A stretch of DNA of 64,000 bases from Nitrospinae bacterium CG11_big_fil_rev_8_21_14_0_20_45_15 (GCA_002787235.1 PCWG01000035.1:101109-165108); one strand, 5' to 3'. Positions 26,365 to 55,062 are shown, counted from the first letter of the stretch. Translations and numbers: made by a program. The notes: a model not told the origin generated them from the sequence alone.

Positions 26365-26389
26365 TTATAAAAAATCAAGATTTGACCTC
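26365..26389 (+). repeat. Orphan copy of the RAYT element's right end
   Basis: TTATAAAA-AATCAAGATTTGACCTC versus TTATAAAATAATCAAGATTTGACCCC at 54302-54327 (1 indel, 1 mismatch). Confidence 0.8.
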
Positions 26390-50682: not shown

Positions 50683-50866
50683 GCCTAGCCTACAGTGAAA
50701 AGAACTATTCAAAAGATCGTTTCATTCGTGCGGATCGGCTCAAGGGGACCCCGCTCCGGCGGGCGTGTGCAAGCCCGGCGAGCCGCCGGGGGCAATAAAA
50801 CTATTCAAAAGATCGTTTCGTTCGTGCGGATCGGCTCAAGGGGACCCCGCTCCGGCGGGCCTGTGC
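50679..50866 (+). repeat. Modular hairpin repeat, tandem copies 3 and 4 (96-bp period)
   Basis: The 68-nt blocks at 50703-50770 and 50799-50866 differ at 2 positions; GTAGGC-CTA-GCCTAC hairpin at 50679-50693. Confidence 0.95.
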
Positions 50867-51159
50867 TAACAACAGGCAGGCCTAATCTACTTGGTGGACC
50901 TATTTATCCGGGATTGCCGGGAAATTCATTCTAAGCTACAATTAATCTACGGATATCCGAAACGTCTACAAAGGTTTCACAGTCACCCAAACCGACCCAG
51001 TGCGCTACACCATGAACAACAAGCGCACCGAGTCTCGCAAAAAATCAGAACTCCTCATAAGGAATTTTTAATATTGAAAAAAGACGCTTATCGACCCAAA
51101 GTGGACATTCCCCTTTTACGCTACACAGTATGACAAACAGCACTTTTGTAGGAGAATAG

Positions 51160-51852
51160 GTGACAAAAATGAAAAAAAAAGCTGATCACTTAAGAAGCAT
51201 TGAAACCGCTATAGTTGAACTAGCCTTATTAGAAGACCGCACAAGGGCTCCCAATCCAATTCCCCATCAATATATTGGAACTATAGTCGACAACACCCTA
51301 GGTTTACTTACAGCTTCTGCAAATTCACTAGATAACGGCGTAAGAATAGTTACTTTTTCTGACGATAAAAATTGGCTTTCATTAATGCAAGCTGTGCATA
51401 GATCTTTTTTTTCATCAATCCATATAGCCATAGAAATAAGCTTTGAAAGAATACTTGAAGATCGCAACATACAGGTAGAAAACAAACAACAGATAAAGCT
51501 TAACAAAGAACTTAAAACTTTTGAGCCGATCGATAAAAAACTCGAAGCCTTCATAACCAAAATAATTAAAGGAATCCCTCTTAATTTTAAAGATAAGTTA
51601 AATGCGGTACTTAAGCTAACTTCACTAAGTAATAATGAGAAGAAGAAATGGAGAAAATTTTTTATAGGCATGACAATTGTAAGAAACAAAGTTTCGCATA
51701 GTAATCCAACCTTAACTCAACAACAACAAGAGGATTTAAAACAGGGTGGCCTTCAAGTTTTGGTCTCAGAAAATGGCAATTTAAAAGCAAACCCCAGAAT
51801 GTACAAACAATTTGCAGAATTTTCTCTTAATTTCTTTGATTTAATGAACTGA
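51160..51852 (+). CDS. AT-rich hypothetical protein with HEPN-like RxxxxH motif
   Basis: AGGAG RBS and GTG start; helical protein with RNKVSH near the C-terminus. Confidence 0.6.
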   Translation: MTKMKKKADHLRSIETAIVELALLEDRTRAPNPIPHQYIGTIVDNTLGLLTASANSLDNGVRIVTFSDDKNWLSLMQAVHRSFFSSIHIAIEISFERILEDRNIQVENKQQIKLNKELKTFEPIDKKLEAFITKIIKGIPLNFKDKLNAVLKLTSLSNNEKKKWRKFFIGMTIVRNKVSHSNPTLTQQQQEDLKQGGLQVLVSENGNLKANPRMYKQFAEFSLNFFDLMN

Positions 51853-51866
51853 GAAACGAGATAATT

Positions 51867-51983
51867 GCCTAACAAATCACTACACTGGATTTCCGTAGCC
51901 ATCGCATTGTGATGTCCGCTATTTGGTCTATAGCAGACAATCATCCTGCCTGAGTAGATCATTTTTTAGGTGAACTCTCTAGC
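51867..51983 (+). other. Possible decayed attC-like site
   Basis: GCCTAAC-AAATC-ACTACAC 14 nt after the stop codon; only a degenerate distal arm (GGTGAACTCTCTAG) is present. Confidence 0.3.
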
Positions 51984-52105
51984 AAAATCCAAACGAAATC
52001 GCACGTTACAAATCAGTTAATATGGCGTGTAGATACTAAAAAGGCGATGGGTTCGCGGTAGTGGCGCGATCAGTGTGTCAGGACGATTTTTATTCCTTGA
52101 AAAAT

Positions 52106-52141
52106 GGATTGCCGCGTCGGCTAAAGCCTCCTCGCAAAGAC
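52106..52141 (+). repeat. REP-like palindromic unit of the GATTGCCxCGTC...CCTCGCAAxGAC type
   Basis: GGATTGCCGCGTCGGCTAAAGCCTCCTCGCAAAGAC; resembles a widespread intergenic repeat class. Confidence 0.55.
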
Positions 52142-52162
52142 GGCTGGTTAGTGTTCTTGCCA

Positions 52163-52207
52163 TGTCTTCGATAAGTTTGGACTCCAGAGATCCTTCGCTT
52201 TGCTCAG
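52163..52207 (-). repeat. 45-bp repeat, partner of 26514-26558
   Basis: 40/45 identity in the opposite orientation. Confidence 0.8.
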
Positions 52208-52305
52208 AAAATGCAGGGGTGAACGAAGTGAACCGTTCTATATTTCTTCCTTGCATTTCTAGGAGCTATGCTCCTGAATGACGATTGGTTGGGGTTTTTG
52301 TTTTC

Positions 52306-52483
52306 TGCACACGCCCGCCGGAGCGGGGTCCAGTTGGGACCTATGAGATTTAAAGAAACGATCTTTTGAGTAGTTCTTTTCACCGCAGGCTTGGCCTGCC
52401 CGCCGGAGCGGGATCCCGTTGGAGAGCATAAGTTTTAAAGAAACGATCTTTGGATAGTTCTATTTACAACGGGCTAGGCCCGT
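52306..52483 (-). repeat. Modular hairpin repeat, tandem copies 5 and 6
   Basis: Reverse complements contain GCAGGCCAAGCCTGC or ACGGGCCTAGCCCGT hairpins, GAACTA(C)TC(C/A)AAAGATCGTTTC, a 23-nt core and GGA(C/T)CCCGCTCCGGCGGGC. Confidence 0.93.
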
Positions 52484-53261
52484 CGGGGATTTCGCCGCCG
52501 TGGATTTTTCTGCGGATTTTGTTTTGGTCGAGCGGGTGATCGTAACCCGGCAGGATGGTTCCATCGTTGGAGTAGGGTCCGATTTTGCTCCAGGTCCCGT
52601 ATTGCGTTTCCGCGACGTATTCCATTTCGAGGATGGCTTTGGGGTTTTTGTATCCGTATTTTGCAGGAACGATCAAGCGGAGCGGGAAGCCGTGTTCGTC
52701 GCTTAGTTTCTCCCCGTTCATCGCGTAGGCTAGTAGCGAGCGAGAATCGCGCAGACTGGCAAGGTCGAGAGATTCCAGATAGGTATCGCCACAGTGAAAG
52801 ACGACCGCTTTGGCAGAAGGCAAGGGACGCACGAGTTTCTCCAGTTCCGGCAGGCGGAATCCGCTCCACTCTGCTTTTGCCGACCAGCATTCGACGCATT
52901 TGAGCCGCGAGACCTGAGACTCGGCGGGTAGGTTCCGCAATTGTTGCAATGTGAATTGTGTGGGTTGTTCGCACAGACCCGAAACCTTGAGGCTCCAGTT
53001 TTCCGCCCGAATCCGGCGCATGGGTTTGAAGAAATTGATGTAGAACTTATCAAATTCACCCTGACGCGTTTTGCCGACAAATTCCGTGCCGGTAAAAAAA
53101 TCGGTCTGCGCCGAGGATCGGCGCGGAGTGAGGAAGAGAGCTGTCAACAGTCCCATGCACTTGAAAACCGCATTGACCAGAAAAGACCGGCGACTGCTCA
53201 GCCCTTTTCCACCCAACTTTTTTAGAGCTTTTGTTTCTTGGGGGTCAAATCTTGTTTTCAT
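52464..53261 (-). CDS. Molybdopterin-dependent oxidoreductase (MsrP/SUOX-like), Tat substrate
   Basis: SRRSFL twin-arginine motif; CVECWS Mo-ligand Cys; HGFPLRLIVPAKYGYKNPK; the start is uncertain because it overlaps the RAYT TIR. Confidence 0.88.
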   Translation of the reverse strand: MKTRFDPQETKALKKLGGKGLSSRRSFLVNAVFKCMGLLTALFLTPRRSSAQTDFFTGTEFVGKTRQGEFDKFYINFFKPMRRIRAENWSLKVSGLCEQPTQFTLQQLRNLPAESQVSRLKCVECWSAKAEWSGFRLPELEKLVRPLPSAKAVVFHCGDTYLESLDLASLRDSRSLLAYAMNGEKLSDEHGFPLRLIVPAKYGYKNPKAILEMEYVAETQYGTWSKIGPYSNDGTILPGYDHPLDQNKIRRKIHGGEIPDGPSPL

Positions 53262-54327
53262 AGAATTGTGACGTCTTTTAAAGTTCCGATTTTATTTTAT
53301 CCAGCATTTTTCTCAATTTCGGGTCCGCTTCCAGTTCCCGGTTCAAGCGGCTGATGGCGGCAGAAACGCCGGAGTAGCTGATACCACCGAATTGTTTGGC
53401 GATGTCTTCGAGACGATGGCCGCCCGGTGCCCGGCACAGGCTGATCGCGATGGTGCGTTCCTGATTGCGGATTCCGCGCACGCTGTGGCGCAGGTCTTTG
53501 GGCGTTACTCCAAAAAATTCCGCACAACACTGGAGGATGCGTTTGATGGTCGGTGGTTTTTTGATGCGTTTGGCGCCGGCGATCTCGGGGCTCAATTTTT
53601 CCGATTCGACGAATTTGGATATTTTCTCTATGAATGCCTCATCTCCCAGCAAAGGGGATTGCCGGCTCTTGGAGTAGAATTCGGCGGTTTCATCGTCCAC
53701 ACCTTCATCAACGTATTTTTTGTAACGCGCTTTTGTGTTTGATTTCCCGATCATGCCCAGAATGAATTTGGTTTCCAGTTCGTTCCCGGCAGAAGCTTTT
53801 CCGGTGTAGGCGGGAAGGCTGGACCACAGGAGGCTGTCACTTTTCTGGGACAGGTTGGAGTCGAGCAAATTCCGGTGAATGTAGCGACTGACCTGGAGCA
53901 GGTAGTTGTCGCTGTCCACGAGGATGGATTTGTATCTGCCTCTGAAAAGAGGTCCATCGGTTCCCACTAAACGATTGAAGCGTTGCGTGTACACGCCGTT
54001 CAGATGCCGCAAGGCCCGCGCCAGTGTGGCTTGTGGGGAGCGAATGAGCAGATGATAGTGATTGTTCATCAGGCAATAGGCGTGAATTTCGACATCAAAG
54101 ATCACGCGGACTTCGCCCAACAGCTTGATGAAAATTTCACGTTGATTGTCGTTTCTGAAGATCGCTTTTTTGCCAGCTCCACGGCCCATGACGTGGTGCC
54201 ATGCTCCGGGGTAGTCTATTCTGAGGGGTCTTGACATGATGTATTGATTTCTATGGATGAGGTGAGTGAATAAATGACCTGTATGGAATCATACCTTTGG
54301 ATTATAAAATAATCAAGATTTGACCCC
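53241..54327 (-). mobile_element. RAYT-like Y1 transposase element bounded by 14-bp perfect terminal inverted repeats (TIRYT / group 2 RAYT-like)
   Basis: GGGGTCAAATCTTG at 53241-53254 and CAAGATTTGACCCC at 54314-54327 flank a single Y1 gene. Confidence 0.8.
53278..54237 (-). CDS. REP-associated tyrosine (HUH/Y1) transposase with C-terminal DnaA-C-like HTH
   Basis: MSRPLR..YPGAWHHVMGRG, AYCLMNNHYH (HUH), LFRGRYKS and YIHRN; C-terminal LEDIAKQFGGISYSGV HTH. Confidence 0.9.
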   Translation of the reverse strand: MSRPLRIDYPGAWHHVMGRGAGKKAIFRNDNQREIFIKLLGEVRVIFDVEIHAYCLMNNHYHLLIRSPQATLARALRHLNGVYTQRFNRLVGTDGPLFRGRYKSILVDSDNYLLQVSRYIHRNLLDSNLSQKSDSLLWSSLPAYTGKASAGNELETKFILGMIGKSNTKARYKKYVDEGVDDETAEFYSKSRQSPLLGDEAFIEKISKFVESEKLSPEIAGAKRIKKPPTIKRILQCCAEFFGVTPKDLRHSVRGIRNQERTIAISLCRAPGGHRLEDIAKQFGGISYSGVSAAISRLNRELEADPKLRKMLDKIKSEL

Positions 54328-54346
54328 ATTATTTTTACAATCGCAT

Positions 54347-54994
54347 TCACTTTGCACACCGGAAGCCAATGAAAGGCAATTTTTTGTTGATCGGTGCAAA
54401 ACTATACTCATAGGTTTTGCTGTATTCATAATCGAGGTGAAAATTCCACAATCCGCCACGGGTCACCGCCTTTCCTTTTGTGACATCAGCGGTCCATTCC
54501 CACACCGATCCCGCCATATCGCGAACGCCGTAGGGCGATCGGTCTTTTTTGTTGAGTCCGACATTGCGTTTGATCAGCCCTGAAAAATACGGATGTGCTT
54601 TTTCGGATAGTACCTTGTTTCCCCAGGGGTATGCGCGGGCATCCACTCCGCGCGCTGATTTTTCCCATTCCGCAGAAGTTGGCAATCGTTTGCCTGTTTT
54701 TTCGCAGTAGCTTTGCGCTTCCTGCCAGGTCACCGAGGTCACGGGATGCCGCTCTGCCCCTTTCGGATAGGGATGGTTGGGAACGATCCGGCTATATTCC
54801 GCATTGCTCGTTTCGAATCGGTCGATATAAAAGGTCGGCAGGTCGATGCTTTGATTGGTATCCTGTTCGCCTGCGGAAGAAGGTCCCATGATAAAAATTC
54901 CGCCCGGAATTTTTATCATCTCCGCGACGGGGCGACTCGCAACCGTGGTTGCCCAGATGCAGATCAGTAATATGATAAAACGGCTGGTTTTCAT
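54347..54994 (-). CDS. Formylglycine-generating enzyme (SUMF1/EgtB/PvdO) family protein
   Basis: IPGGIFIMG, PVTSVTWQEA, RLPTSAEWEKSARG, DMAGSVWEW and IGFRC. Confidence 0.9.
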   Translation of the reverse strand: MKTSRFIILLICIWATTVASRPVAEMIKIPGGIFIMGPSSAGEQDTNQSIDLPTFYIDRFETSNAEYSRIVPNHPYPKGAERHPVTSVTWQEAQSYCEKTGKRLPTSAEWEKSARGVDARAYPWGNKVLSEKAHPYFSGLIKRNVGLNKKDRSPYGVRDMAGSVWEWTADVTKGKAVTRGGLWNFHLDYEYSKTYEYSFAPINKKLPFIGFRCAK

Positions 54995-55062
54995 GATCGA
55001 ATAAAATGATAATAGAAAACAGGCAGGAATTCAGAATTTAAATTTACGCTGGGTGGAGTGCA

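Follow-up and report, generated by a model that had tools for sequence, protein, structure and literature searches.

A TIRtron in a Nitrospinae genome: a TIRYT gene between inverted copies of a dispersed repeat, probably a long-term resident resembling RAYT/REP systems

A 64,000-nt stretch of the genome of Nitrospinae bacterium CG11_big_fil_rev_8_21_14_0_20_45_15 (GCA_002787235.1, PCWG01000035.1:101109-165108; hereafter the window) holds, at positions 53241-54327, a gene for a Y1/HUH enzyme enclosed by terminal inverted repeats (TIRs). We consider it probable, at roughly 0.78, that this element is a TIRtron, in which a TIRYT gene lies between two inverted copies of its cognate end sequence, and that it is a long-term resident of the genome in the manner of RAYT/REP systems. 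The system looks static, unlike a hopping insertion sequence. Its behaviour is described as resident and RAYT/REP-like because the gene is single copy, stays at one locus and evolves under strong purifying selection, and because solo copies of the end sequence are conserved in place. A sequence-only reading of the window had implied a self-contained insertion element. That implication was not upheld, given the single copy, the synteny in three lineages, the purifying selection at saturated synonymous divergence (dS) and the membership of both arms in a family of about 40 copies. The genome (G000) is an assembly of 3.37 Mb in 45 contigs, where the window corresponds to C32:101109-165108, and the names of homologs placed the organism in Nitrospinaceae.

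The sequence GGGGTCAAATCTTG was found at 53241-53254 and its reverse complement, CAAGATTTGACCCC, at 54314-54327. By chance, two flanks of 100 nt would contain a perfect inverted pair of 14 nt about 4e-5 times. In the output of the repeat finder the pair extended to 17 nt at 94% identity, with one mismatch (53241-53257 and 54311-54327), and the whole unit from TIR to TIR measured 1,087 bp. The TIRYT gene (53278-54237, minus strand) encodes 319 amino acids. Its 5′ arm (54311-54327, minus strand, core at 54314-54327 with the GGGG tip outward) is located 76 nt upstream of the ATG, and its 3′ arm (53241-53257, plus strand, core at 53241-53254) ends 20-23 nt from the stop codon and overlaps the first seven codons of an MsrP-like gene. 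Both arms and the enclosed open reading frame (ORF) were thus recovered as the sequence-only reading had described them, perfect over 14 bp and tight around a RAYT gene with a helix-turn-helix (HTH). That reading was also right in reporting no target duplication, as the outer flanks (..TTCTTG before the element and ATTATT.. after it) share no direct repeat. The inner TTGATT of the 5′ arm (54316-54311) resembles a −35 hexamer weakly, at 9/12, and does not exceed shuffles.

The protein matched Pfam Y1_Tnp over residues 15-123 (E 7.8e-11, above the gathering score) and Bac_DnaA_C over residues 231-296 (E 8.8e-8, 32.5 bits vs a cut-off of 31.5). It is therefore composed of a Y1/HUH domain (H60-Y-H62, Y119, N123), a linker and a C-terminal HTH similar to DnaA domain IV. 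H60-Y-H62 and S-R-Y119-I-H fell on invariant columns of the family alignment, in which the catalytic residues H60, H62, Y119 and N123 were all intact in the window's protein. The translation reads SRYIHRNLL in the region of the catalytic tyrosine, confirming the YIHRNL that had been seen in place of the usual YIxxNP. NP occupied Y+4/Y+5 in 105 of the 117 homologs scored (drawn from the 120 nearest), while NL was unique to the window's protein and IL occurred in its two nearest relatives. The first histidine of HUH was kept in 104 of 115 homologs drawn from the same 120. An AlphaFold (AF2) model with a predicted local distance difference test score (pLDDT) of 84 had as its best PDB fold match 4er8_A, the E. 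coli TnpA_REP in complex with a REP hairpin (E 1.3e-5, target template modelling score 0.71), followed by ISDra2 and IS608 TnpA (2xma, 2a6m, 2vjv), and the C-terminal tail matched DnaA 8btg. A sequence search of PDB returned DnaA for the tail only, the Y1 domain being matched through the fold search instead, and phmmer gave weak matches of the tail to DnaA domain IV structures (E 0.03-0.3). The score against the RAYT equivalog NF047646 of NCBIfam (REP_Tyr_transpos) was 44.2 bits, under the cut-off of 80.

A RAYT-like Y1/HUH enzyme with an HTH and with TIRs starting GGGG(A/T)(C/G)A, as the element had been characterised, is the TIRtron/TIRYT class (Di Nocera, De Gregorio & Rocco 2013, BMC Genomics 14:522, PMC3733652), or TnpA_REP subclass 2.1 (group 2.1.2) of Quentin et al. 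2018 (BMC Genomics 19:475, PMC6006769). The C-terminal HTH of subclass 2.1.2 is related to Bac_DnaA_C, HTH_23 or HTH_28, and Quentin et al. noted a DnaA-like tail together with a TIR that does not match DnaA boxes (PMC6006769). The element shares with published TIRtrons the RAYT-like Y1 enzyme with a Bac_DnaA_C-type C-terminal HTH, the low gene copy number, the position of the gene between inverted repeats opening GGGG-W-S-A, and the occurrence of these repeats as a moderately abundant dispersed family of singles, dimers and groups. It differs at the eighth position of the published TIR consensus GGGGWSAS: GGGGTCAA matched 7/8 positions, the eighth being A and not S.

Further copies, a search for which had been suggested by the sequence-only reading, were found for the arms and not for the gene. 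The gene was represented in G000 by one full copy and a 47-aa remnant, and the two arms proved to belong to a family with about 40 members, each a unit of roughly 27 nt. There were 13 exact copies of the 14-mer, 26 at up to one mismatch and 58 at up to two, compared with 0, 0 and 12 for the reversed 14-mer, and a position weight matrix (PWM) scan recovered 40-44 unit copies vs 0-1 for the control. In the logo of the copies the unit comprised an A/T-rich lead, GGGGTCAAATCTTG and then aTTTnATAnA, with the GGGG tip outward. The copies were nearly all intergenic, and the three of the 44 PWM hits that fell inside ORFs were all low-scoring. With genes called crudely, as simple longest ORFs, 24 of the 38 classifiable copies lay in convergent gaps, a class that accounts for 17% of all gaps (p ~3e-10), and one of the 38 lay in a divergent gap (p ~6e-5). 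Orientation relative to transcription was random (7 against 6 in tandem gene contexts). Most copies were solo, and a single clear inverted doublet, 95 nt long, was found at C21:100005-100099. The sole further copy in the window, GAGGTCAAATCTTGATTTTTTATAA, is at 26365-26389 on the minus strand, in a convergent gap (C32:127484; PWM 39.1 bits).

Two other identities for the dispersed motif were rejected. As a promoter it would be misplaced, lying mostly in convergent gaps and having nothing conserved at −10 spacing, and promoter-like hits in the locus were no commoner than in shuffles. A terminator or directional RNA element was dismissed as the unit has no GC stem with a T-run and its orientation in tandem contexts was evenly split.

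The doublet on C21 belongs to a CTAT variant of the repeat, of which there are eight copies in G000. A third copy lies at C21:100700-100713, and within C21:100005-100713 an inverted pair surrounds an AT-rich ORF of 172 aa that has no Pfam match. Also on C21, at 78340-78570 (L002), is the 5′ fragment of a second, different TIRtron, truncated after about 50 TIRYT codons; its tip bears the micro-repeat AAAAGGGGTCAAG twice, and its arm, GGGGTCAAGTCCGTTCTTGAC, is of the hairpin type.

The ortholog in a sister species (G002) was 89% identical at the amino acid level, and the region around it was collinear with the window (79% nucleotide identity). Its arms were conserved (5′ arm 14/14, 3′ arm 13/14) and the sequence separating the 5′ arm from the ATG had diverged. 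The ratio of nonsynonymous to synonymous divergence (dN/dS, or omega) between the two genes was 0.041 at a dS of 1.38, and the Y1 domain was the most constrained part, with an omega of 0.025. G002 possesses 26 copies of the 14-mer, and about 16 of the 20 sites examined share their intergenic gap with a copy in G000. In the repeat-anchored pairs from the two genomes the core was 93% identical, positions 15-27 were 58% identical, and the flanks, at 28-32%, were at the random level. Three repeat sites were present in G002 only.

A third lineage (P0003), represented by a contig of 7.7 kb and 77% identical to the TIRYT protein, had the gene order of G000: permease, FGE-domain gene, TIRYT and MsrP-like gene. 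Its 5′ arm was AGGGTCAAGTCTTG and its 3′ arm had decayed, with 6/14 mismatches. The protein carried H60Q and N123I, with the ORF intact and a dN of 0.14 at saturated dS. Across the same locus in the three lineages dN/dS ranged from 0.04 to 0.09, synonymous divergence being saturated. The sequence-only reading would have been contradicted by a gene that was ancestral and syntenic without conserved TIRs; the outcome was mixed, as the gene was indeed ancestral and syntenic in the three lineages, but the TIRs were kept in two of them, with one arm decayed in the third.

In the closed genome of a congener (G001) there was no TIRYT homolog and no copy of the 14-mer. In G001, 250 bp separate the dppB-like and dppC-like ABC permease genes, and in G000 a block of 4.4 kb (50690-55060) holding the TIRtron lies between them. 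As an outgroup for decayed remnants G001 was uninformative in the C2 and C15 regions, which are rearranged there so that the orthologous gaps could not be aligned. The fixation of the locus across three lineages, the conservation of solo copies at orthologous sites, the joint absence of gene and repeats from a congener and the erosion of the catalytic site in the nearest relatives all go beyond the published TIRtron papers.

Matches to TIRYT at E <= 1e-10 amounted to 5,710 proteins from many phyla. Among the best 120 of these, most were about 320 aa long with the same two domains, and many homologs were located on contigs of 1.0-1.4 kb. Flanking inverted repeats were sought at 58 of 80 homolog loci, again from many phyla, and a pair was obtained at 47 of the 58, with the core GGGGTCA(A/G)(A/G)TC in 43 of the 47. 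Position 8 of the TIR was A or G across the loci surveyed, and judging from these sequences the last position (S) of the published GGGGWSAS motif looks too narrow. GTCA...TGAC was present in many arms, with a preference for spacings of 5 and of 10 nt. The arms of relatives folded as DNA hairpins (−2.7 to −5.9 kcal/mol, z −2.3 to −3.4), one end that forms a strong hairpin being GGGGTCAAGTCTCCGCTTGAC.

Between one and six full-length TIRYT genes were found in each of 20 other genomes. In gene-bearing genomes the 11-mer GGGGTCARRTC exceeded its control (102 vs 1, 49 vs 7, 40 vs 2, 34 vs 3 and 25 vs 3), and in G001 it was not enriched (4 vs 5). A closed Nitrospirales genome (G041) had three copies of the element. 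Their identity of 99.4-99.5% holds for about 1.04 kb and ends precisely with the arms, beyond which the flanks are unrelated; therefore, the unit is mobile in that genome. The ends of these copies (L140-L142) bear short tandem duplications of tip and flank, AAAAGGGGTCA on the left and TGACCCCTATT on the right, and extra end copies occur in arrays downstream. In another gene-bearing genome (G060, the source of L112) many copies of GGGGTCA(A/G)GTC form inverted pairs 75-95 nt apart, as at C11:5668/5743, C30:26898/26973 and C59:19125/19200. Such doublets of TIRYT ends resemble REPINs or MITEs.

In the likely mechanism, the HTH, the Y1 domain or both would recognise the GGGGTCARRTC core, which in many relatives heads a short hairpin. 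Y119 and the HUH metal site would nick one strand near the GGGG tip, leaving a covalent 5′-phosphotyrosine link. Strand transfer would then move the whole TIR-to-TIR unit, or else end sequences would be acted on in trans, and nicking and strand-transfer chemistry of this kind may once have spread the end sequences. A working enzyme can be argued for because the omega of the Y1 domain is low and the active site is intact in G000. The residues of the nearest relatives hint at the opposite, a nuclease activity that is dispensable in this clade, because those relatives have lost N123 and one of them has also lost H60 and one arm. From the same losses, the activity may be weakened in the clade.

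Several observations weigh against a resident TIRtron with RAYT/REP-like behaviour. With GC skew as a proxy for the direction of replication, the orientation of the copies was unbiased (21:19). The arms in the window, which have TTGAT or TTGTT for TTGAC, folded at −0.9 to −2.1 kcal/mol, like shuffles, through a stem of 3-4 bp only. As their single strands fold no better than shuffles, hairpin recognition found no support in G000, and if it is the rule of the family its operation in G000 is doubtful. N123 is lost in near relatives, and in P0003 H60 as well. The solo copies could have been conserved for some host function that has nothing to do with transposition. No clean empty site was found for the three copies specific to G002, the intergenic DNA being too diverged for insertion borders to be placed. 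The G002 assembly is 87% complete, and the gene calls are crude. Finally, no experimental or biochemical study of the TIRYT class was found in the literature searched, in agreement with the earlier description of the class as mechanistically uncharacterised.

Intact H60, H62, Y119 and N123 between perfect TIRs would also be expected of an active autonomous insertion sequence moving as a TIR-bounded unit of 1,087 bp. The mobility of relatives from TIR to TIR in Nitrospirales, the many homologs on 1.0-1.4-kb contigs, as expected of repeated elements, and the location of the element within a block missing from G001 could be read in the same way. However, there is one gene copy in the genome, and it has kept the same locus in three lineages through saturated synonymous divergence at a dN/dS of 0.04-0.09. 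Furthermore, precise excision would delete the ATG of the downstream MsrP-like gene, because this conserved start codon lies inside the element. We thus regard an active insertion sequence as quite improbable. Still harder to credit, and in our estimate very improbable indeed, is a regulatory or structural signal of the host that has no connection with the enzyme, the gene merely lying between two sites of a dispersed motif of 14-27 nt. The conservation of copies in place and their concentration at convergent gene ends would suit such a signal, but the same core flanks TIRYT genes, inverted, in unrelated phyla, genomes of the genus have either both gene and motif or neither, and the motif shows no conserved promoter spacing, no GC hairpin with a T-run and no preferred orientation relative to transcription.

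A further explanation is that TIRYT was domesticated as a sequence-specific DNA-binding factor that acts close to the 3′ ends of genes at about 40 conserved sites, on transcription ends, replication-transcription encounters or chromosome structure for instance, and that transposition is no longer its selected function. Solo copies at orthologous sites with a core identity of 93% among randomised flanks, strong purifying selection on the gene, an orientation unbiased relative to replication or transcription and the weak hairpin in G000 are all compatible with domestication, as are N123I in the nearest relatives and the additional H60Q and decayed 3′ arm of the 77% relative, whose ORF is intact at a dN of 0.14. 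Against this, it is the Y1 domain that is most constrained, fitting a working nuclease; every catalytic residue is intact in G000, and a His-to-Gln change can still bind metal; and RAYT/REPIN systems persist similarly without a proven host function. We consider domestication unlikely, though less so than an active insertion sequence, and prefer the long-term resident TIRtron.

Members of IS200/IS605 (IS608 and ISDra2 TnpA) lack TIRs and carry subterminal hairpins instead. They occur in multiple copies, their insertion is strongly biased to one replication strand, and their TnpA is a protein of about 130-155 aa without an HTH tail. The element in the window has in common with them the Y1/HUH fold and the lack of a target duplication. 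It differs in its TIRs, its one gene copy, the even orientation split of its repeats and its protein of 319 aa. The likeness to RAYT/REP and REPIN systems (Nunvar 2010; Bertels & Rainey 2011; Ton-Hoang 2012; Bertels et al. 2017, PMC5581495; structure 4ER8) is closer in behaviour: a single-copy, vertically inherited nuclease gene is flanked by its own short repeats and persists for long, the repeats are scattered extragenically, often at gene 3′ ends, and the N-terminal domain best matches 4er8_A. Unlike in those systems, the repeat has a GGGG head, no GTAG and no stable palindrome, it occurs mostly as singles and in about 40 copies rather than hundreds, and the protein has an extra DnaA-like HTH and scores below the REP_Tyr_transpos cut-off.

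The TIRtron is flanked by an FGE-sulfatase-domain gene (54347-54994) and by the MsrP-like gene (52464-53261, minus strand), a Tat-signal molybdopterin oxidoreductase of MsrP/YedY type that is a neighbour outside the element proper. The ATG of the latter (53261-53259) and its first seven codons (MKTRFDP) fall within the 3′ end of the element (53241-53261). All three lineages retain this start codon and its reading frame, including the one with the decayed arm, and G002 has an in-frame deletion of 18 nt; an alternative TTG start lies closer to the twin-arginine motif. G001 has a paralogous FGE/MsrP-like pair directly adjacent, 10 bp apart and in opposite order (L031 745-2223), and the two genes therefore look functionally linked. 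Besides the TIRtron and these two genes, the 4.4-kb block contains a different repeat family (..AACTATTCAAAAGATCGTTTC.TTCGTGCGGATCGGCTCAAGGGGACCCCGCTCCGGCGGG..) at 50690-50870 and about 52260-52430, on both sides of an AT-rich ORF (51160-51852) with weak, sub-threshold matches to MIT_C and HEPN_Apea. This second family and the AT-rich ORF are all inside the block missing from G001.

Gene order was compared around some of the solo copies. All six tested sit at breaks between G000 and G001 (C2:18632-36403 and C15:76230-91477), in regions that are break-rich generally. On C2, three consecutive single genes lying between copies of the same orientation correspond to 1.61, 1.80 and 1.84 Mb in G001. 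Between G000 and G002, breaks were present at 7 of 16 junctions with a repeat vs 1 of 11 without (Fisher p = 0.09). A link between solo copies and structural breakpoints is suggestive only.

The class has already been described, but the RAYT-like behaviour of TIRYT stands out with unusual clarity in this case, thanks to the comparison within one genus and to the conservation of the solo ends. Two species with the gene and about 26 exact or near-exact 14-mers, largely at the same sites, and one closed genome with neither offer a natural comparison. The GGGGTCARRTC core and the two spacing classes of hairpin are concrete substrates for a first study of binding and cleavage. Tentatively, and with the odds well against it, we suggest that TIRYT and its roughly 40 solo ends are a host-integrated system kept by selection, in which the protein, its nuclease perhaps weakened, acts at fixed sites where genes converge and serves something other than its own spread. 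If this were true, sites and gene would both have been selected across an evolutionary distance that randomises neutral DNA. In a looser variant, the solo ends may mark or promote rearrangements and indels of adjacent gene blocks. A TIRYT that behaves like RAYT/REPIN lends support to the view that HUH/Y1 enzymes repeatedly turned into long-term residents with repeat populations of their own.

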